Positions 1 to 17,138 of a DNA stretch of 18,808 bases are shown in pieces. The notes beneath the pieces are model-generated. The model saw nothing but the letters and a program-made list of their open reading frames with translations. It was not told the origin of the DNA and ran no database searches. The number at the start of each line of letters is the position of its first letter. Within the stretch, counting starts at the first letter, position 1. The stretch is taken from positions 1-18,808 of the IMG/VR virus record IMGVR_UViG_2531839477_000015; one strand, 5' to 3'. The stretch is from a virus. Its lineage: Duplodnaviria > Heunggongvirae > Uroviricota > Caudoviricetes. A program made the position numbers and the translations under genes.

Positions 1-1284
1 TTACTTCTTCGCCTCTGCAACCACTTTACTACCCACGCCGCGGTTATTGTATTCCCACATGCGGTTGTAGTTAGTGTCATTCAGATTGCGCTGTATTTCG
101 TCGTTATCATCTACGCTGCCGGTATTACCCGCAAACGGACGATTAGAGATCACCGCATCGGCCCACGGTTTAGCCGTGTTAAAACCTTCGTTGATGGCGC
201 TATCACGGATCACCACCTGACCGTTGGTATTGGCATCAACATCCAGCGAGCGGCCCAGTTGCGCCACACCATCACCGAAAGCATTGAAACGGCTGTTTAC
301 GGCGAGGAAACCGTAGTAAATGTTGGACAGCGTAGCCGGTGCAAACACATACGCTTCTTGCTGAGTACGTGAGTTCACCACGCGGAATTCGGTGTTATCG
401 AACACCACTGCGCCGCGACCAGAAACGATATCCACATCCCCTTCAATGTAGCTGTTGGTCACCAGCGTACGCGGCTGACGATTCGTTTCCAGACGGTTCT
501 GCACACCGCTGTTGGTGACAAAGAAGGTGTTCTGACGACCGAGAATGTTAACGTTGTTAATCTGTACCTGGTCACCATCAGTACGCAGTGCCACCGCCGG
601 ATGGTTACCTGCATCTACGCTATCGCCCAGCGTGTTTTCGATGGTCAGATTTTGCAGTTGCAGGCCATTGTTTTGTGACCAGAAGACCGCAGAGCAGAGA
701 ACACCGATACTGTCGCTGCGTTTGCTCTGGCAGCTATCGTACATATACCACGCTGGTTTACCTGGCATATATTTGCCGCGCGGGTTGACGTCGTGACGCC
801 AGTCGGCAGGGCTCATGCCACCATCAAGGGAAAGCCCAATCTTCACATCAATCGGTTTTTCACCTGTACCGTACAGAGTAATTCCACCCGGAGCGGCAGG
901 GACATATACCGTTCCCTGATACTCACCAGGCATCACGGCAATATACTGGCGCTTGTTGGTACGCTTGATAATTGCCGCATCTACCGCCGCCTGAATCGTG
1001 GTATGCGTTACACCTTGAGTGCCCGCCGGGCCGACAACAAAGTCAGGTTGCGCAGGCAGGGTAATCGGGGAAGGATTCCACGCTGCAGCACCTGGTGTCA
1101 GGGATGCAAAATAGTGTTGAGCATCGAAATTCTGCGCTTCTTTTGCCGACAGAATCGGGCGAGAAGAGGTACCAGGCGCGGTTTGATCAGAAGGACGTTG
1201 ATCGGGCGGGGTTGAGCTACAGGCGGTCAGCGTCACGCCAAAAGCCAATGCCAGCGCCAGACGGGAAACTGAAAATGTGTTCAC
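1..1284 (-). CDS. ybhC: YbhC outer-membrane lipoprotein (pectinesterase-fold acyl-CoA thioesterase); host gene flanking attB-lambda
   Basis: 427-aa ORF; GTG start at 1282-1284 with GGAG 6 nt upstream; signal peptide plus lipobox LTAC; recognised from memory as E. coli YbhC; stop TAA at 1-3. Confidence 0.9.
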   Translation of the reverse strand: MNTFSVSRLALALAFGVTLTACSSTPPDQRPSDQTAPGTSSRPILSAKEAQNFDAQHYFASLTPGAAAWNPSPITLPAQPDFVVGPAGTQGVTHTTIQAAVDAAIIKRTNKRQYIAVMPGEYQGTVYVPAAPGGITLYGTGEKPIDVKIGLSLDGGMSPADWRHDVNPRGKYMPGKPAWYMYDSCQSKRSDSIGVLCSAVFWSQNNGLQLQNLTIENTLGDSVDAGNHPAVALRTDGDQVQINNVNILGRQNTFFVTNSGVQNRLETNRQPRTLVTNSYIEGDVDIVSGRGAVVFDNTEFRVVNSRTQQEAYVFAPATLSNIYYGFLAVNSRFNAFGDGVAQLGRSLDVDANTNGQVVIRDSAINEGFNTAKPWADAVISNRPFAGNTGSVDDNDEIQRNLNDTNYNRMWEYNNRGVGSKVVAEAKK

Positions 1285-1418: not shown

Positions 1419-2489
1419 TTATTTGATTTCAATTTTGTCCCACTCCCTGCCTCTGTCATCACGATACTGTGATGCCATGGTGTCCGACTTATGCCCGAGA
1501 AGATGTTGAGCAAACTTATCGCTTATCTGCTTCTCATAGAGTCTTGCAGACAAACTGCGCAACTCGTGAAAGGTAGGCGGATCCCCTTCGAAGGAAAGAC
1601 CTGATGCTTTTCGTGCGCGCATAAAATACCTTGATACTGTGCCGGATGAAAGCGGTTCGCGACGAGTAGATGCAATTATGGTTTCTCCGCCAAGAATCTC
1701 TTTGCATTTATCAAGTGTTTCCTTCATTGATATTCCGAGAGCATCAACATGCAATGCTGTTGGGATGGCAATTTTTACGCCTGTTTTGCTTTGCTCGACA
1801 TAAAGATATCCATCTACGATATCAGACCACTTCATTTCGCATAAATCACCAACTCGTTGCCCGGTAACAACAGCCAGTTCCATTGCAAGTCTGAGCCAAC
1901 ATGGTGATGATTCTGCTGCTTGATAAATTTTCAGGTATTCGTCAGCCGTAAGTCTTGATCTCCTTACCTCTGATTTTGCTGCGCGAGTGGCAGCGACAGG
2001 GTTTGTTGTTATATGGCCTTCAGCTATTGCCTCTCGGAATGCATCGCTCAGTGTTGATCTGATTAACTTGGCTGACGCCGCCTTGCCCTCGTCTATGTAT
2101 CCATTGAGCATTGCCGCAATTTCTTTTGTGGTGATGTCTTCAAGTGGAGCATCAGGCAGACCCCTCCTTATTGCTTTAATTTTGCTCATGTAATTTATGA
2201 GTGTCTTCTGCTTGATTCCTCTGCTGGCCAGGATTTTTTCGTAGCGATCAAGCCATGAATGTAACGTAACGGAATTATCACTGTTGATTCTCGCTGTCAG
2301 AGGCTTGTGTTTGTGTCCTGAAAATAACTCAATGTTGGCCTGTATGGCTTCAGTGATTGCGATTCGCCTGTCTCTGCCTAATCCAAACTCTTTACCCGTC
2401 CTTGGGTCCCTGTAGCAGTAATATCCATTGTTTCTTATATAAAGGTTAGGGGGTAAATCCCGGCGCTCATGACTTCGCCTTCTTCCCAT
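1419..2489 (-). CDS. int: Lambda-type integrase (tyrosine recombinase)
   Basis: 356-aa ORF MGRRRSHERRDLPPNLYIRNNGYYCYRDPRTGKEFGLG...DKIEIK, recognised as lambda Int; adjacent to attL; 23-nt overlap with xis as in lambda. Confidence 0.97.
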   Translation of the reverse strand: MGRRRSHERRDLPPNLYIRNNGYYCYRDPRTGKEFGLGRDRRIAITEAIQANIELFSGHKHKPLTARINSDNSVTLHSWLDRYEKILASRGIKQKTLINYMSKIKAIRRGLPDAPLEDITTKEIAAMLNGYIDEGKAASAKLIRSTLSDAFREAIAEGHITTNPVAATRAAKSEVRRSRLTADEYLKIYQAAESSPCWLRLAMELAVVTGQRVGDLCEMKWSDIVDGYLYVEQSKTGVKIAIPTALHVDALGISMKETLDKCKEILGGETIIASTRREPLSSGTVSRYFMRARKASGLSFEGDPPTFHELRSLSARLYEKQISDKFAQHLLGHKSDTMASQYRDDRGREWDKIEIK

Positions 2490-8017: not shown

Positions 8018-8329
8018 TTAGGCGGCTGATGTTTCTTCTTTCAGGCTTTCGAGATATTTACGTGGGTCGTCGTAACATTGGCATTCGCTATACCAATCCA
8101 CCCAGCGATCAGTAAGCCCCATATCTGATAAATCTTCATCGGTAAGGCTCTCATCCCACATCTCAAGGCCGTTAGCATTGCAGTAATCAGGCTTGATGTT
8201 GTTGTCATACTGAAAGGCGTCATAATCAGCCAGTGCGTCCATCAGGCGAACACCCTCTTCAACACTTGCCACTTCTACAATGAACGGCTTCATAGGTACT
8301 TGCGGGATATGCCAGACACGTAATTTCAT
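8018..8329 (-). CDS. Hypothetical acidic protein (103 aa)
   Basis: Start trimmed to ATG 8327-8329 (MKLRVWHIPQ...) with GGAGGA upstream. Confidence 0.55.
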   Translation of the reverse strand: MKLRVWHIPQVPMKPFIVEVASVEEGVRLMDALADYDAFQYDNNIKPDYCNANGLEMWDESLTDEDLSDMGLTDRWVDWYSECQCYDDPRKYLESLKEETSAA

Positions 8330-8341
8330 ATATCCTCCGTC

Positions 8342-8370
8342 AAAAAAATTGCCCTCACATTGGAGGGCAA
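8342..8370 (-). terminator. Intrinsic terminator (tL-type) on the minus strand
   Basis: Minus-strand RNA UUGCCCUC-CAAUGU-GAGGGCAA followed by UUUUUUU; stem 8351-8356/8363-8368, U-run from plus A-run 8342-8348. Confidence 0.6.
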
Positions 8371-8430
8371 AGAAGATTTCCAATAATCAGAACAAGTCGG
8401 CTCCTGTTTAGTTACGAGCGACATTGCTCC

Positions 8431-8472: not shown

Positions 8473-8943
8473 CTAATAAAACACCCAGTTTTCTGTTTCT
8501 TGGTTGTGTCCAAAGTTATATTCAATATCTGGTGTTGATGTATCAATATTCTTAATCCCATCAACAAGAGTTGATACAACAGCCAAATCTTGTTTGATTC
8601 TCATCAAATGGTATTTCTTCCGGCGCAATAAACTTTCAATGGCAAGTTTCTTCGTCGGGAACGCAAAAGATCTTTCTGCATTTTTTGCTACTTTCTTAAT
8701 TGCATATCTATTTCTCCTTTGTTTCCATTCCTGTAACCACTGATTTGGTGCTGGTTTAAAATTAACAATCCAATGCGCAGGAACCAACCATGCATAATGC
8801 TCTGTCTGATGAAAAGCTATATATTGAAGTGCGCATATTTTTATCCCATCTTCTTCAACTGTCGCCTGGAATCTCCAGAAAACAGGCATTCCATCATGTT
8901 CAGTTTCTGATTCAGGAAAAGGTACGCTCCATGATTTTGTCAT
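8473..8943 (-). CDS. Hypothetical protein (156 aa), N-proximal moron
   Basis: ATG 8941-8943 with GAGGTGA upstream; no motif recognised; a 60-nt sample (8701-8760) counts 37% GC versus 55% in a 60-nt int sample (1441-1500). Confidence 0.6.
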   Translation of the reverse strand: MTKSWSVPFPESETEHDGMPVFWRFQATVEEDGIKICALQYIAFHQTEHYAWLVPAHWIVNFKPAPNQWLQEWKQRRNRYAIKKVAKNAERSFAFPTKKLAIESLLRRKKYHLMRIKQDLAVVSTLVDGIKNIDTSTPDIEYNFGHNQETENWVFY

Positions 8944-8997
8944 ATCTCACCTCAAATAAGTGGTTTGCTGCGAAAATAAATCCGCTTAAGTTACCTG

Positions 8998-9135
8998 TTA
9001 TTTATCCCACCAAGTTCCGGATCTATCTATCCAGTTACACCAATCATCGACACTCCATTTTGTTGTGTCGCATTTTGGCAACTGGCATGAATATCTACCT
9101 TCTTTGTAAAGTCGGCGTTTGACTTTCTTGAGCAT
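8998..9135 (-). CDS. Small Cys-containing ORF (45 aa)
   Basis: Not in the track. ATG 9133-9135 with GAGGTGA upstream; translation MLKKVKRRLYKEGRYSCQLPKCDTTKWSVDDWCNWIDRSGTWWDK. Confidence 0.3.
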   Translation of the reverse strand: MLKKVKRRLYKEGRYSCQLPKCDTTKWSVDDWCNWIDRSGTWWDK

Positions 9136-9143
9136 GGCTCACC

Positions 9144-9449
9144 TCAATCGTAATAAGCTGGAATTGATTTTCCGCGTTGCTTCTGGCGGCCTGAACAAGT
9201 CACACCCATTTCACTGCGTGGCTTGCGGTAGTAAATACGGTTCTGTTTACGCTCGACTTCTTCTGCCTTCTTGCAGCGAAGGCTTCCGAGTGATGCTGCT
9301 TTATCTGCTCTGACGCAACCAGAGAGCTTTAGCGCAATTTTTCGTGCCAGTCGCTGCTCTTGCATTGCCTGTTCACGTTGATCCTGTCTGCGTGCTCTGC
9401 GGCGATTTCTGGCGTTATCGTCAGCCAGATATGTAATGACTACTGTCAT
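9144..9449 (-). CDS. N: Antitermination protein N
   Basis: N-terminal arginine-rich motif NARNRRRARRQDQREQ and C-terminus KPRSEMGVTCSGRQKQRGKSIP matching lambda N (...KPGERGITCSGRQKIKGKSIP); GGAGG 5 nt upstream; nutL lies in its leader. Confidence 0.85.
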   Translation of the reverse strand: MTVVITYLADDNARNRRRARRQDQREQAMQEQRLARKIALKLSGCVRADKAASLGSLRCKKAEEVERKQNRIYYRKPRSEMGVTCSGRQKQRGKSIPAYYD

Positions 9450-9557
9450 GTTGACCTCCGATGATTGACTTTGGCGGTGACGCGCCGGGTGCTTATCTTC
9501 CGGTTGCCGTCGTGCAGCTGCACTTCACGTCACCCCAAAACCAACTACTCTTTGGTT

Positions 9558-9598
9558 CCCGCATTTCGGCGGGACAATCCCATCAATGTTAAAGAGCC
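9558..9598 (-). promoter_or_regulatory. nutL (boxA GCTCTTTAACA + boxB hairpin CCCGC-CGAAAT-GCGGG)
   Basis: Read on the minus strand: boxA at plus 9587-9597 and boxB at plus 9558-9573; the boxB 16-mer is identical to the one downstream of cro. Confidence 0.7.
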
Positions 9599-9644
9599 TG
9601 CCAATATGTTCCGTTTGGCTACCAAACGTCCTGCTGATGGCTAA

Positions 9645-9673
9645 AGAATACTGTAGGTATTTTATTGTGTAAA
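9645..9673 (-). promoter_or_regulatory. pL promoter (putative)
   Basis: On the minus strand: -35 TTTACA (plus 9668-9673), 17-bp spacer, -10 TATTCT (plus 9645-9650); overlaps the two operator palindromes. Confidence 0.5.
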
Positions 9674-9731
9674 TACCCAAGGTATTTATTTTTGATGAAA
9701 TAATGATAAGCAAATGAATACAAAGGATATT
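9646..9731. promoter_or_regulatory. OL operators (2 clear + 1 degenerate site)
   Basis: AATAC-N5-GTATT at 9647-9661 and 9672-9686 (the latter a perfect 17-bp palindrome AAATACC-CAA-GGTATTT); weaker AATAC-N5-ATATT at 9717-9731. Confidence 0.6.
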
Positions 9732-9817
9732 TATTTTTTCGGTGTCTGCTTGTTCAGTGCTTTTTATGCGGGATATGTGAAGTGGATCCCGATAGCTATT
9801 GCTGCCGGGATTATAGG

Positions 9818-10186
9818 TTAGTCAGCGAAGGTTAAGACGAGAATTACCTTAATGATATCTGCTACAACAGACACGGCCATAGATAAACCAAAGACAATCC
9901 AAGCCATATAGATGTCTTCACTACCATCGTATAGAGTTCCGTAATCACTGGTGTAAGGCGTAAATGTCGCGCCTTGATACAACAGGTATAAGCTTGAACC
10001 ATAGAGGATAAATGCAGATATCCCTTGTATTGCTATGATCACTAGAATCATGAAACGAGCTGATCTATGCGCCCAAGCCTGGCTTATTTTTTCTGATAGA
10101 GATTTCGCAATAAAAGCATGCGCTAAGCCGTAAATTGTCGAGATTGCCAACATCCCAAAAAAGCTTGCTATAGCGGTTCCAACCAT
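9818..10186 (-). CDS. Small polytopic membrane protein in the rex position (downstream of cI)
   Basis: Start trimmed to ATG 10184-10186 (MVGTAIASFFGML...) with AAGGGG upstream (the track start is TTG); three or four hydrophobic helices; no recognised family. Confidence 0.65.
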   Translation of the reverse strand: MVGTAIASFFGMLAISTIYGLAHAFIAKSLSEKISQAWAHRSARFMILVIIAIQGISAFILYGSSLYLLYQGATFTPYTSDYGTLYDGSEDIYMAWIVFGLSMAVSVVADIIKVILVLTFAD

Positions 10187-10203
10187 AATCGCCCCTTGCG
10201 TGA

Positions 10204-10920
10204 TCAAACCAGCCTTAGTTTTGTCTCAATTGCAACGCCTATAATCTTGCAGTTTCCATTGATTGGCACGAGAGGCCATGCAGGATTAAGTCCCTTGAGG
10301 TATTTATTTCCGCCGTCGATTATCAGCTTCTTGAATGTTGCTTCGTTAGAGTCAGAAAGTTTTGCTATGACCAAGCTGCCGTTGATCGCCTCCCTTCCGG
10401 TATCGAAAAGAACGAATGTTCCCTCTGGAATGCTTAACCCAACCGGTGCCGTCATTGAATCACCTTCCACTTTAAGCCAGAACGCATTACCTTGAATATG
10501 CGCGTCAGACTCAAGCCAAACATCTATGTCTTTAATGGTGTATGGTTCGCATGCTTCACACCACGAGCCAGCCTGGATACTGCTTAACACCGGATACCTC
10601 TTTCCTGCTCTGTATTCCCCTGCATACCTTACGTTGGCATCGCTCTTAAGGCTTTCTGCCTGTTCTGCAACCTTGGCAGCAATTGACTGGCTAAAATCAG
10701 CAATTGAGACTTGCAACAGTCGTGCAAAACCAGATGCAACCTCAACGTTTAGCGCGTTTCTGCCATTAAGATAATGCCCTACCGCTCCTTGGGTGATACC
10801 CAGTTCATCCGCGATTGAGTATTGGGTTATCCCCAATTCTTTCTTTTTTGACTCATACAAAGCCTTAAGCCGCTTAGCGTCTTCGAGCTGTTCTGTCGTC
10901 AGTGATTTTTTATTTTCCAT
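10204..10920 (-). CDS. cI: CI-type prophage repressor (HTH + LexA/S24-like autocleavage domain)
   Basis: N-terminus LTTEQLEDAKRLKALYESKKKELGITQYSIADELGITQGAVGHY parallels lambda CI; C-terminal domain with conserved Ser/Lys context (WLKVEGDSMTAP ... TFKKLI); divergent from cro across the operators. Confidence 0.93.
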   Translation of the reverse strand: MENKKSLTTEQLEDAKRLKALYESKKKELGITQYSIADELGITQGAVGHYLNGRNALNVEVASGFARLLQVSIADFSQSIAAKVAEQAESLKSDANVRYAGEYRAGKRYPVLSSIQAGSWCEACEPYTIKDIDVWLESDAHIQGNAFWLKVEGDSMTAPVGLSIPEGTFVLFDTGREAINGSLVIAKLSDSNEATFKKLIIDGGNKYLKGLNPAWPLVPINGNCKIIGVAIETKLRLV

Positions 10921-10931
10921 AGCTTAATTCT

Positions 10932-10996
10932 AATAGCTAAGGTACTTAAACTAAAAATACCCTGAGTATTGATTGCTTTGAATACCTGTAGTATTC
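10932..10996. promoter_or_regulatory. OR operators (OR3-OR2-OR1) with divergent pRM and pR
   Basis: AATAC-N5-GTATT at 10956-10970 and 10981-10995, degenerate AATAG-N5-GTACT at 10932-10946; centre spacing 24-25 bp; possible leaderless pRM with -10 TAGAAT (plus 10927-10932) about 7 nt before the cI ATG. Confidence 0.6.
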
Positions 10997-10997
10997 T
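10969..10997 (+). promoter_or_regulatory. pR promoter (putative)
   Basis: -35 TTGATT (10969-10974), 17-bp spacer, -10 TATTCT (10992-10997), the same -10 hexamer as pL; overlaps OR1/OR2. Confidence 0.55.
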
Positions 10998-11026
10998 TTG
11001 TTCATGGTTAATAACGGAGAGTGCAT

Positions 11027-11221
11027 ATGATTCGAATGACACTTGCCGATTACGCCAAAATCCATGGACAGGCTAAAGCAGCCAGTGACTTTGGTGTAAT
11101 CCAGTGCGCTATCAGCAAGGCCATTCTGGCAGGCCGTAACATTATGGTTACGGTAAAGCCTGATGGCAGTGTGATTGGAGAGGAGGTTCGTCCTTTCCCA
11201 AGCAACAAGAAAAACAAATAG
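11027..11221 (+). CDS. cro: Cro repressor
   Basis: [33 protein letters not shown]...[13 protein letters not shown] parallels lambda Cro (…YQSAINKAI…EEVKPFPSNKK); ATG 11027 with ACGGAGAG upstream. Confidence 0.85.
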
Positions 11222-11227
11222 TAACAC

Positions 11228-11270
11228 CGCTCTTTAACAGTCATGGTCCTCATTCCCGCCGAAATGCGGG
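11228..11270 (+). promoter_or_regulatory. nutR (boxA CGCTCTTTAACA + boxB CCCGC-CGAAAT-GCGGG)
   Basis: boxA 11228-11239 matches the boxA consensus; boxB hairpin 11255-11270; located 7 nt after the cro stop. Confidence 0.75.
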
Positions 11271-11329
11271 AATACAACGCGCATCAGTTGGTGCGCATAA
11301 CTTCTTATTTGTTAAGGAAATACTTACAT

Positions 11330-11608
11330 ATGCAACTTACAAGTACTCGCAAGAAAGCGAATGCAATTACAAGCAACATCCTAAATCGAATTGCTGTACG
11401 TGGTCAGCGAAAGGTTGCTGATGCATTAGGGATCAATGAATCACAAATTTCGCGATGGAAAGACAGCTTTATCCCAAAGATGGCCATGCTTCTGGCTGTT
11501 CTTGAATGGGGAGTTGTTGATGATGAGATGGCGAGACTTGCTCAGCAGGTGGCATCGATTCTCACAAAAGAAAAACGCCCAGCTGTTGGTAGCAGTCTGG
11601 ACGCTTAA
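11330..11608 (+). CDS. cII: CII transcriptional activator
   Basis: Start trimmed to ATG 11330 (upstream AAGGAAATACTTACATATG matches the lambda cII initiation region as recalled); ...SQISRWKDSFIPKMAMLLAVLEWGVVDDEMARLAQQVASILT parallels lambda CII. Confidence 0.9.
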   Translation: MQLTSTRKKANAITSNILNRIAVRGQRKVADALGINESQISRWKDSFIPKMAMLLAVLEWGVVDDEMARLAQQVASILTKEKRPAVGSSLDA

Positions 11609-11668
11609 GCACACTGTGTTACGCCAAGTAACAGGAGTAATTATGCCAGGACAAACCAAGCAAGTAAA
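11567..11668 (-). ncRNA. OOP-like antisense RNA (putative)
   Basis: Minus-strand hairpin CGUCCAG...CUGGGCG + UUUUUCUUUU inside the cII 3' end (plus about 11570-11600), analogous to the lambda oop terminator; possible promoter -35 TTGTCA (plus 11687-11692) and -10 TTTACT (plus 11663-11668). Confidence 0.3.
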
Positions 11669-12047
11669 CACCGGCATAAAGGCCGGTGACAAGTTCGAAA
11701 CCGTATATCCATTTATCTTCGTATGCACAGATTATCAGTCTTATGACGGCAACGTGCATACCGATGAGCGCTGGATTGGCGGTTGTCACAAAAATTATGA
11801 GCCAGCCGATTGTGGTTATGGTGATCAGTGTTTTTACACCGCTGATGCTGAAGGAAAGAGAATTCTTGAGGTTCTGGCAGTGGTGGAAATGCCAGGCAAC
11901 TGGCAGCGCAGAATCATTTATTCGTGCCACCTCATAGAGCCTGAAGGCAAGGAGAGGAAAGGAAGGAAGGCTTACACAGTCACCGAATCAAGGTTTTTAA
12001 AAATGTCTACTGGTTACTTCGCTGATTACGAAGTAGAGGAGGCTTAA
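11643..12047 (+). CDS. Hypothetical Cys-rich protein (134 aa) inserted between cII and O
   Basis: ATG 11643 with AGGAG 5 nt upstream (the track ORF is over-extended into cII); Cys/His-rich segment [40 protein letters not shown]; no family recognised. Confidence 0.6.
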
Positions 12048-13153: not shown

Positions 13154-13648
13154 ATGATGAGCCTTGAAGTTGGAGAATATATACCTGGTTATGAGGGTAA
13201 ATACTCTGTAACCAAAGACGGTCGTGTTTATTCACATTTAAGAGGCAGGTTTTTGAATCCATCTCCGGATAACAAGGGTTATCTAAGAGTCACTTTGTGT
13301 TCCGATGGGATTCAGAAGACGTTAAAAGTTCATCGTCTTGTAGCTCAATTATTTATCCCAAATCCGTATTGCAAGCCAGAAGTAAATCATATCAACGGCG
13401 ACAAATCGGATAACGCCATTTGGAACTTGGAATGGTGTACCTGCTCAGAGAATTTAAAACATGCTTTTAGCATCGGACTGAAAAGCGCAAAGGGAGTTTT
13501 TAATGGTAGGGCAAAACTATCTGAAACTGATGTGATTGATATCAGGAATTCTGTTGGTATGAAACTAAGCGAACTATCCACTAAATACGGAGTGAGTGAA
13601 ATGCAAATTTCCACAATCCGCAGAGGAAACGCATGGAGGCACCTTTGA
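13154..13648 (+). CDS. HNH homing-type endonuclease (NUMOD4-like N-terminus, HNH_3 core, C-terminal HTH)
   Basis: YIPGYEGKYSVTKDGRVYS...HRLVAQLFIPNP...VNHINGDKSDNAIWNLEWCTCSEN; by-eye AT-rich; sits between the O-like gene and the primase-helicase. Confidence 0.8.
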   Translation: MMSLEVGEYIPGYEGKYSVTKDGRVYSHLRGRFLNPSPDNKGYLRVTLCSDGIQKTLKVHRLVAQLFIPNPYCKPEVNHINGDKSDNAIWNLEWCTCSENLKHAFSIGLKSAKGVFNGRAKLSETDVIDIRNSVGMKLSELSTKYGVSEMQISTIRRGNAWRHL

Positions 13649-15602: not shown

Positions 15603-16019
15603 ATGAAAAAACTAACCTTTGAAATTCGATCTCCAGCACATCAGCAAAACGCTATTCACGCAGTACAGCAAATTCTTCCAGACCCAACCAAACCAATCGT
15701 AGTAACTATTCAGGAACGCAACCGCAGCATTCGGCAAAATGCACGCCTTCACGCGATGCTATCTGAAATAAGTAAGAAGGCTACATATCATGGAAAAGCA
15801 AGAAATATTGAGTTTTGGAAGGGGTTATTCGTTTCTGGTTGGCAGATTGCAACCAACCAGCACCCTGAGATTATATCAGGGTTAGAAGGTGAGCTAATAA
15901 ACATCAGAGAGAGTACGGCGACTCTATCTGTAAAAAAAATATCCGAAATAATGGACTACATAGAAGCATATTGTGCCATGAACTCAATTCATCTTAGCGA
16001 ATGGAGGAATTATGATTGA
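15603..16019 (+). CDS. ninB: NinB (Orf-family recombination mediator)
   Basis: MKKLTFEIRSPAHQQNAIHAVQQILPDPTKPIVVTIQERNRS matches the lambda NinB N-terminus as recalled; remainder is a diverged homologue; the track start at 15585 is TTG. Confidence 0.85.
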   Translation: MKKLTFEIRSPAHQQNAIHAVQQILPDPTKPIVVTIQERNRSIRQNARLHAMLSEISKKATYHGKARNIEFWKGLFVSGWQIATNQHPEIISGLEGELINIRESTATLSVKKISEIMDYIEAYCAMNSIHLSEWRNYD

Positions 16020-16614
16020 GGTTTGGGTAGATATCGAAGGAATTCCATTTTATCAGGTTAGCAATAAAGGAAATTTCAGGTCTATTACGAGGGAAATTAC
16101 AGTAACATCAACCAGACAGAGGCCATATAAGAAAATAATTAATGGCACTAGCGTAAAACCATTCAAGTGCAAGTCGACAGGATATCTTCAAATAAAGGTA
16201 TACGGTAAGAAATACAGCGCCCACAGGATAGTTGCGAAAGCATTCTGTACAGGGTTCTGTGATGGCTTGGTAGTTAATCACAAAAATGGGCAAAGAGATG
16301 ACAATAGGGCTGAAAACCTTGAATGGGTATCTCATTCTGAAAACTCAAAGCACGGATATAAACAAAATGGAAGAATACCTATATCGCTAGGTAAATTTAG
16401 TGGTGATCATCCTGCCAGTAAAGCTGTTATTTCTACTGACATGAAAACTGGGGAGGAGGTTTATTATGAAGCAGCTATGGATGCTGTCAGAGAAGGATTT
16501 GATAGTTCGTCAATTAGTCGTTGCTGTAATGGCGAAAGCTCATATCACAAAGGAAGATTCTGGCGATTTGCAAATGAAACAATGAAAGCGAGATGGGGAG
16601 ATCGGGCTGCATGA
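16012..16614 (+). CDS. HNH homing-type endonuclease inserted at the ninB 3' end
   Basis: NUMOD4-like GIPFYQVSNKGNFRS and HNH_3 HRIVAKAF...VNHKNGQRDDNRAENLEWVSHSEN; AT-rich by eye; C-terminal KARWGDRAA equals the lambda NinB C-terminus as recalled. Confidence 0.8.
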   Translation: MIEVWVDIEGIPFYQVSNKGNFRSITREITVTSTRQRPYKKIINGTSVKPFKCKSTGYLQIKVYGKKYSAHRIVAKAFCTGFCDGLVVNHKNGQRDDNRAENLEWVSHSENSKHGYKQNGRIPISLGKFSGDHPASKAVISTDMKTGEEVYYEAAMDAVREGFDSSSISRCCNGESSYHKGRFWRFANETMKARWGDRAA

Positions 16615-17138
16615 CTATCAAATCAAATACGCCAGCACACGACAAGGACTGCTGGCAAACGCCGCTTTGGCTTTTTGATGCACTGGATATTGAGTTTGGA
16701 TTCTGGCTGGATTCGGCAGCGAGCGACAAAAATGCTCTGTGTGCTCACTGGCTAACTGAGGCCGACGACGCACTCAATTCTGAGTGGGTAAGCCACGGTG
16801 CAATCTGGAATAACCCACCGTACAGCAATATCAGGCCGTGGGTGGAAAAAGCTGCTGAGCAGTGCATACAACAGCGACAGACGGTAGTTATGCTTGTGCC
16901 AGAGGATATGTCAGTCGGATGGTTCAGCAAGGCTCTGGAGAGTGTCGACGAAGTTCGCATTATCACTGATGGACGGATTAATTTTATCGAACCATCGACA
17001 GGGCTGGAGAAGAAGGGAAACAGCAAAGGCTCCATGCTGCTGATTTGGCGACCGTTCATCAGTCCTCGACGGATGTTTACTACCGTATCCAAAGCGGCAT
17101 TGATGGCGATCGGGCAGGGCGTCAGGAGGGCGGCATGA
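16611..17138 (+). CDS. Phage Dam-family DNA N6-adenine methyltransferase
   Basis: Catalytic motif AIWNNPPYS; N-terminus [26 protein letters not shown] typical of phage Dam family; ATG 16611 overlaps the HNH stop (ATGA). Confidence 0.8.

Follow-up and report, generated by a model that had tools for sequence, protein, structure and literature searches.

hkaS, a predicted inner-membrane protein gene behind the cI repressor in an HK620-type lambdoid immunity region

The interval between cI and N in lambdoid phages is a mosaic hotspot housing rexAB and bstA (PMC8585504). The bstA gene of Salmonella phage BTP1 is a lysogen-expressed defence gene directly downstream of cI, with a promoter presumed to be shared, and its product localises to phage DNA replication sites (PMC8585504). 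P22 SieA resides in the inner membrane as a protein of 162-164 amino acids (aa) with three transmembrane (TM) spans that alone blocks DNA injection via the ejection proteins, and it occurs as three sequence types (PMC10883804). Here, hkaS is described, a gene at positions 9818-10186 (minus strand) of an 18,808-nucleotide (nt) stretch of IMG/VR virus record IMGVR_UViG_2531839477_000015, the whole of which was analysed and is called the window. The window represents the early region of a lambdoid prophage, and hkaS lies in it with cI on one side and the oL operators on the other. In lambda this slot is occupied by rexA-rexB, as the original prediction for this DNA had stated.

It is very likely that hkaS is a true gene of the immunity operon and is expressed as a membrane protein. 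By analogy with described systems its product may block superinfecting phage at the inner membrane of the lysogen, a tentative reading that is weighed below together with its rivals.

The hkaS gene in the repressor operon

The reading frame of hkaS runs from an ATG at 10186 to a TAA at 9818-9820 and encodes a product of 122 aa. Its coordinates and length, and the 17-bp gap to the co-oriented cI gene, were all as originally predicted. This part of the operon is composed as follows.

10204..10920, minus strand: cI repressor, HTH_3 plus Peptidase_S24, 238 aa, lambda cI/LexA type
10187..10203, minus strand: cI-hkaS spacer, 17 nt, with the Shine-Dalgarno sequence AAGGGG at 10193-10198
9818..10186, minus strand: hkaS-like coding sequence, predicted three-pass inner-membrane protein of 122 aa
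9786..9811, minus strand: hairpin 7 nt past the hkaS stop codon, without a U tract

The cI gene showed 99.6-100% identity with cI of HK620 and mEpX2. AAGGGG stands 6 nt ahead of the hkaS ATG, and a purine-rich Shine-Dalgarno sequence was kept in every diverged locus. The ATG was taken as the start because the diverged homologues all open at the equivalent ATG, behind a purine-rich spacer that measures 17-20 nt across lineages, one of them with an in-frame stop codon directly upstream. An upstream TTG, which would give a protein of 129 aa, was ruled out by the same homologues.

A spacer of 17 nt is too short for a promoter or terminator, which argues for one transcription unit with cI, and in the HK620 record the end of the cI transcript is set downstream of hkaS. 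To judge by this arrangement, hkaS is almost certainly co-transcribed with cI, and the spacer with its own ribosome-binding site, together with the HK620 transcript-end annotation, suggests expression in the lysogen. hkaS would then be the second cistron of the repressor operon, made together with cI from pRM in the lysogen and from pRE during establishment. Past hkaS, the minus strand of the window showed no consensus intrinsic terminator.

The predicted absence of a RexA-like partner was confirmed: only 17 nt separate hkaS from cI, and no further gene precedes oL. A very hydrophobic 35-aa open reading frame (ORF) at 9714-9821 (plus strand; MNTKDIYFFGVCLFSAFYAGYVKWIPIAIAAGIIG), considered as a partner or type I toxin, was dropped as not conserved in diverged loci; it is convergent with hkaS, with overlapping stop codons, and is probably no gene. 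A 62-aa ORF at 9525-9713 (minus strand), annotated in some records, extends across both nutL and pL and most probably is not a real gene.

Predicted architecture, distribution and selection

Three membrane spans were found in HkaS by hydropathy, at residues ~3-27, 45-70 and 93-121. The AlphaFold2 model, which drew on only seven sequences, had a pLDDT of 92.3 and placed helices at residues 2-29, 31-38, 41-73 and 89-121; in it, loop 1 contains a short helix and loop 2 a small beta-hairpin. Of the 'three or four' hydrophobic helices first proposed, three were borne out by hydropathy and by the model, and a fourth was not. When 20 full-length members were scored, loop 1 carried a net charge of +3 to +5, whereas loop 2, acidic and aromatic, carried -1 to -4. 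From the basic loop 1 and the acidic loop 2, the positive-inside rule predicts an N-terminus out and a C-terminus in. The N-terminus and the acidic aromatic loop of 22 residues would thus be periplasmic, and the basic loop of 17 residues and the C-terminal tail cytoplasmic.

Invariant positions comprise K-I-x-Q-A-W-x-H-R-x-A-R-F in the predicted cytoplasmic loop, Y-L-L-Y-x-G-x-T-F at the periplasmic end of TM2, D110 and K113 in TM3, and the C-terminal V-L-T-F-A-D. The conserved polar or charged residues within TM2 and TM3 are Q54, S106, D110 and K113. TM1 is the least conserved part of the protein and, as its A-H-A motif is not conserved, it is not a cleavable signal peptide. The allele in the window carries Tyr93, a position taken by Ser or Thr in most alleles.

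The ORF corresponds to HK620 hkaS (AAK28867; HK620p19), with the product given as "unknown", and to RefSeq entries of the WP_024202995 type, named 'hypothetical protein'. It matched PHROG 6534 (function unknown) with E = 6.8e-79, residues 1-122 falling on profile positions 1-122. At the DNA level the region is 97.8% identical to HK620, and the segment 9450-10300 is 97.6-98.5% identical to mEpX2, HF4s, HK620, HK630, HK140 and two Stx phages. Pfam and NCBIfam gave nothing significant for HkaS; a match to Cation_ATPase_C (E = 0.0015, below the cut-off) was put down to generic hydrophobic similarity. A PDB sequence search returned 0 matches. The description 'no recognisable family' stands as far as Pfam, NCBIfam and PADLOC are concerned, and 'unannotatable' gives way to PHROG 6534 and the named HK620 gene.

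A word-indexed search of 5.8 billion proteins yielded 12 HkaS clusters, and an exhaustive phmmer search of 1.8 billion representatives added a fragment and one further 50% cluster. phmmer also returned two repeat proteins of >2000 aa, rich in T/D/G/S, which were discarded as compositional artefacts. Following a profile search, the family comprised 33 clusters, all of 121-122 aa and at least 52% identical to HkaS of the window. Hosts were Escherichia, Hafnia, Salmonella, Klebsiella aerogenes, Citrobacter and Cronobacter, all Enterobacterales. These protein searches gave no relatives more distant than 52% identity, and no hkaS homologue was found in a scan of GTDB species-representative genomes. 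The gene was present in 146 of the 5426 complete E. coli genomes (~2.7%), always on the chromosome. Its carriers include P22-like, lambda-like and Stx phages, and hkaS is independent of virion type. In sequence the catalogued gene hkaS is an orphan; in kind it is an ordinary locus, placed in a cargo slot of known type.

The hkaS frame was intact in 81 of 81 E. coli loci. Within the E. coli population, the ratio of non-synonymous to synonymous diversity (piN/piS) was 0.23 for hkaS versus 0.02 for cI, and 20 protein alleles of hkaS were counted versus 5 of cI, all hkaS changes being conservative. In the Hafnia-type pair, synonymous differences (pS) amounted to 0.48 for hkaS and 0.48 for cI; in more distant pairs both were saturated near 0.8. 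Against the Hafnia-type allele, the non-synonymous to synonymous rate ratio (omega) of hkaS was ~0.12. At equal synonymous divergence (dS), non-synonymous divergence was 4-5x higher in hkaS than in cI, and ~40 residues of HkaS remained invariant at 52% identity, past synonymous saturation. hkaS is selectively maintained, though less tightly than the repressor. Since its synonymous divergence equals that of cI, the gene has co-diverged with the repressor and is no recent arrival; it is an old resident of the cassette, for as long as the cassette lineages have diverged.

These figures bear on the idea that hkaS is a functionless hitch-hiker trapped between cI and the co-inherited oL operators. 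A position between two co-adapted elements would explain the 1:1 linkage with cI described below, and rare frameshifted variants exist (P0006, P0007, P0009). The idea is nevertheless largely refuted by selection (omega 0.12-0.23, frame intact at every one of those E. coli loci), by the length fixed at 121-122 aa and the invariant residues kept at 52% identity, and by the conserved ribosome-binding site, so that it has hardly any probability left.

Base composition had been taken as consistent with a moron. The 60-nt sample behind that reading does have 43.3% GC, while the int ORF, for which a sample at 55% had been cited, has 45.3% as a whole. GC content was 41.2% for the hkaS ORF, 46.1% for the window and 45.9% for cI, which places hkaS at the 12th percentile of windows of the same size. 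A moron reading from low GC did not survive, given a dS equal to that of cI and a GC content only at that percentile; moreover, the spacer leaves no room for a promoter and hkaS has the same genome count as cI.

The immunity cassette and candidate functions

The oL, pL, nutL, oR, cro and cII elements were placed by alignment to the annotated HK620 genome. The cassette around cI and hkaS is laid out as follows.

9144..9449, minus strand: N-like antiterminator; on this left side the cassette ends variably, from ~9181 to 9555
9557..9598, minus strand: nutL, mapped from HK620
9638..9732, minus strand: pL/oL, with pL at 9638-9673, OL1 at 9646-9662, OL2 at 9671-9687 and a probable OL3 at 9716-9732
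10931..10996, no strand assigned: oR region, with OR3 at 10931-10947, OR2 at 10955-10971 and OR1 at 10980-10996, mapped from the HK620 record
10969-11004: pR, mapped from the HK620 record; pRM would lie in the oR region
11027..11221, plus strand: cro
11330..11608, plus strand: cII; the right edge of the conserved cassette is at ~11574-11583

hkaS and cI are strictly linked. Each matched 146 E. coli genomes at 147 places, and all 16 phage records with this cI carry hkaS. In 18 of the 18 places recovered by exact-sequence look-up with seven homologues, an S24 repressor was followed by 17-20 nt, the gene, and then an N-type antiterminator region. Among 80 IMG/VR loci, the high-identity block always extended from ~9181-9555 to ~11574-11583 and had unrelated flanks. 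This block is the immunity module, holding pL/oL, hkaS, cI, oR, cro and cII. Geometry suffices to explain the strict linkage: hkaS has cI on one side and, on the other, the oL operators, which cI must recognise, and recombination parting cI from oL would destroy immunity.

Conservation next to unrelated repressors had been proposed as a check. At the 18 places looked up, hkaS was always found behind an S24 repressor, and an unrelated DNA-binding domain was met in loci L107 and L108, where the C-terminal domain is still HK620-like. There, an hkaS homologue (55% identical) stands behind a repressor of 210 aa (L107 1700-3400), whose N-terminal DNA-binding domain is unrelated to that of HK620 cI and whose C-terminal domain is nearly identical to it, at most aligned positions. 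Cro is of the P22 type, and operators of the form ATTTAAG-N4-CTTAAAT occur on both sides, at oR and downstream of hkaS (oL); the HK620-type core ATAC-N5-GTAT is absent from both loci. As the cI C-terminal domain and hkaS were kept within P22-type operators, hkaS is independent of operator and repressor specificity. In both loci a clean terminator follows the hkaS homologue (AAACAACCCGGA...TCCGGGTTTTTT).

The hybrid loci are also relevant to a possible role of HkaS as modulator of the lysis-lysogeny switch, in which a protein made from pRE and pRM transcripts would act at the membrane on host proteases such as FtsH, or on other factors, that set the levels of CII, CIII and cI, and so tune establishment or induction. 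FtsH is membrane-bound and degrades CII and CIII, and lambda RexB reportedly influences the proteolysis of lambda O. Together with cI, cro and cII, hkaS has diverged as a single cassette, what persisted in L107/L108 through the swap of both operator sets is precisely hkaS and the C-terminal domain of cI, and the best-conserved HkaS segments (the loop and the V-L-T-F-A-D tail) are cytoplasmic by prediction. Adjacency alone, however, explains the linkage, and hkaS is missing from CharmingMan (77% identity in the C-terminal domain), OS31 and mEp213 (51-71% identity in cI), whose switches are presumably functional. The P22 slot is empty, and no sequence evidence ties HkaS to FtsH, HflKC or Clp. 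A switch role is therefore considered unlikely; if true, the control of lambdoid lysogeny would gain a membrane component.

Coupling to the repressor itself, in which HkaS, by its invariant cytoplasmic loop and its tail, contacts or controls the C-terminal domain of cI (S24 autocleavage and oligomerisation), or else controls a switch protease, and thereby sets the threshold for induction or establishment, would explain why the cI C-terminal domain and hkaS survive the swap of operators, Cro and DNA-binding domain in L107/L108. We regard it as very improbable. A regulator of a lambdoid repressor that is anchored in the membrane would be new to the textbook switch.

The reading favoured here, tentatively and as a possibility well short of probable, is that HkaS, expressed in the lysogen, acts in the inner membrane and stops superinfecting phage there. 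HkaS would sit in the inner membrane and shield the lysogen from other phages, and could disturb the delivery of superinfecting phage DNA, as P22 SieA, T4 Imm and lactococcal Sie2009 do. This guess is made because of the precedent of the slot, the SieA-like architecture, the lack of a soluble sensing domain, and an evolution faster than that of the neighbouring regulators. The faster protein change fits an interface facing changing partners. Both the anti-phage activity and the step that would be blocked are inferred.

A number of observations weigh against phage exclusion. PADLOC-DB v2 gave 0 defence families matching HkaS at E <= 1. Profile comparison by hhalign gave probabilities of 0.7% with lambda RexB, 1.7% with lambda SieB and 0.3% with P22 SieA, only the P22 type of SieA being compared, and fold searches with HkaS returned no significant viral match and, from the PDB, only generic helical bundles. 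Conservation is strongest on the cytoplasmic side (loop 1 and the C-terminal tail), unlike what is expected for contact with a periplasmic phage conduit. No arms-race signature was detected in hkaS, omega being well below 1 and the substitutions conservative. The linkage of hkaS to cI is explained by position alone. In the literature search no paper was found that names hkaS together with HK620; papers on mEpX2, SieA, BstA, Nissle and svsR contained nothing on hkaS. A lead from Nissle, the 'pr' amplicon, was discarded, as its 410 bp are too short for the 717-bp cI.

The slot itself also tempers the argument. The original prediction had called it a known hotspot for prophage-encoded defence; a published mosaic slot with rexAB and bstA upholds this, but in related phages the cI-to-pL slot can also be empty or carry cargo of no obvious defensive character, so that position alone is weak evidence. 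The occupants compared were as follows.

Lambda: rexAB
434, Sf6, Huey: 134-aa signal-peptide protein, variously labelled
Erwinia phage EhrS_49: soluble protein of 179-200 aa
Cronobacter phage ENT39118: unannotated ORF of 99 aa
P22, mEp213, Serratia OS31: nothing
CharmingMan (cI C-terminal domain 77% identical): no hkaS

In 434-type regions the conserved 134-aa gene overlaps the cI stop codon (L018 2109-2513; L111 1908-2312; L113 1909-2313). Its labels by record are 'repressor protection protein', 'gene 38 protein' and 'PagP', and the 434 product, the sole one translated here, has a signal-peptide-like start.

Such cargo is relevant to lysogenic conversion, in which HkaS would alter host physiology through a change in the envelope or stress response, for example tolerance to a toxin, a bacteriocin or ionic stress. 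Expression with cI would serve this purpose because the cI promoter is the strongest prophage promoter in the lysogen. The slot protein of 434, Sf6 and Huey, PagP-like in one record, illustrates that cargo is not always anti-phage, and a membrane role of a housekeeping-like kind would agree with the purifying selection and the conservative nature of the changes. A site handling ions or a ligand could be formed by the invariant Asp-x-x-Lys buried in TM3 together with Gln54 in TM2. Against this, HkaS has no similarity to transporter, immunity-protein or stress families in Pfam or NCBIfam, and the family was found only within lambdoid immunity cassettes, never as a chromosomal gene. Conversion is accordingly rated as doubtful.

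Abortive infection of the RexB type would require an oligomeric channel that depolarises the membrane once an infecting phage triggers it, the sensor coming from the host, from a different prophage gene or from HkaS itself. hkaS has the slot and strand of rexB and encodes a small polytopic protein, in which Q54, S106, D110 and K113 could line a pore. The mechanism is nonetheless quite unlikely: homology to RexB is lacking, as the hhalign value above indicates, no RexA-like gene lies nearby, and HkaS has three rather than four TM spans and almost no soluble domain for sensing infection. A constitutive pore-former would also need tight control, and no control element is visible. Neither the RexB nor the SieB family appeared in the Pfam scan of HkaS at E <= 1.

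Each occupant of the cI-to-pL slot studied so far (lambda rexAB and BTP1 bstA) has proved to have an interesting lysogen function. Carriers of hkaS comprise the tractable model HK620, the K-12-infecting mEpX2, HK630 and HK140, and Stx-converting phages. If the exclusion reading is true, HkaS would found a new sequence family of single-protein membrane exclusion factors, with a bearing on phage therapy and on the spread of Stx phages. HkaS is a clean target in any case, being small and without a partner gene, with D110, K113, the cytoplasmic loop and VLTFAD open to mutation.

Neighbouring genes and comparison with known systems

In the operators, the core ATAC-N5-GTAT occurs five times in the window versus 0.10 expected. 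OL1, OL2, OR2 and OR1 account for four of these, and the remaining copy, within hkaS at 9977-9989 (codons Y67-L-L-Y70), is kept by 80 of 80 E. coli-type alleles. As an operator this last copy was rejected, since it is missing in diverged alleles while the true operators there keep the core, and it is probably a by-product of the Tyr-Leu-Leu-Tyr codons. The site GAATACAAAGGATATTT (9716-9732) has one mismatch to the operator consensus and is probably the actual OL3. In diverged cassettes an operator core without mismatch stands at the same 45-bp spacing from OL2. In the HK620 record, the OL3 equivalent (9693-9709) is not operator-like, and 9706-9736 is called terminator tIMM. The latter stretch overlaps the OL3-like site and looks like this third oL operator. 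An Rfam scan of 8900-11700 gave nothing credible.

Elsewhere in the window the following genes were noted.

1-1284, minus strand: pectinesterase-like protein of 427 aa, probably encoded by the host where the prophage ends
1419-2489, minus strand: 356-aa tyrosine integrase
8018-8383, minus strand: P22 gp17 homologue in the early-left operon, PF17420 'Superinfection exclusion gene product 17', E = 9e-56
8473-8943, minus strand: 156-aa ORF between N and the gp17 homologue, PHROG 1636 (function unknown)
11643-12047, plus strand: 134-aa ORF inserted between cII and the O-like replication gene, PHROG 30464 (function unknown)

As the pectinesterase-like host gene adjoins the integrase gene, the window starts at the prophage end. 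The 8473-8943 ORF has the lowest GC content of the region (36.9%) and no Pfam, NCBIfam or PADLOC match; its composition makes it a stronger candidate for a moron than hkaS. Further downstream, the primase/helicase and NinB genes lie between two HNH endonuclease genes, and an orphan DNA methyltransferase gene (PADLOC oMTase) follows. The coordinates given jointly for the 134-aa ORF, the HNH pair and the methyltransferase are 11643-12047, 13154-13648, 16012-16614 and 16593-17138, all on the plus strand.

Compared with known systems, HkaS resembles RexB in slot (cI to oL), strand and operon logic, and both are small polytopic inner-membrane proteins, in the case of HkaS by prediction. RexB, however, has four TM spans and 144 aa and needs RexA, whereas HkaS has three predicted spans and 122 aa and no partner in the cassette.

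Class I holins such as lambda S and P22 gp13 share with HkaS a size of ~100-120 aa, three TM spans and a predicted N-out/C-in topology. HkaS differs in ending on VLTFAD without a charged tail and in belonging to the immunity operon and not to a lysis cassette; hhalign against P22 gp13 gave a probability of 0.4%. Its gene is placed for constitutive lysogen expression, which a holin could not tolerate.

BstA sits in the same position behind cI. As it localises to phage DNA replication sites, BstA is not described as a membrane protein, and, unlike hkaS, its system includes a DNA-based self-immunity element (PMC8585504).

SieA differs in genomic setting, as its gene adjoins the ejection-protein genes and has its own promoter outside the immunity operon, whereas hkaS lies in the repressor operon. 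In architecture, as a single small protein with three TM spans (predicted in HkaS), SieA is the closest studied match.

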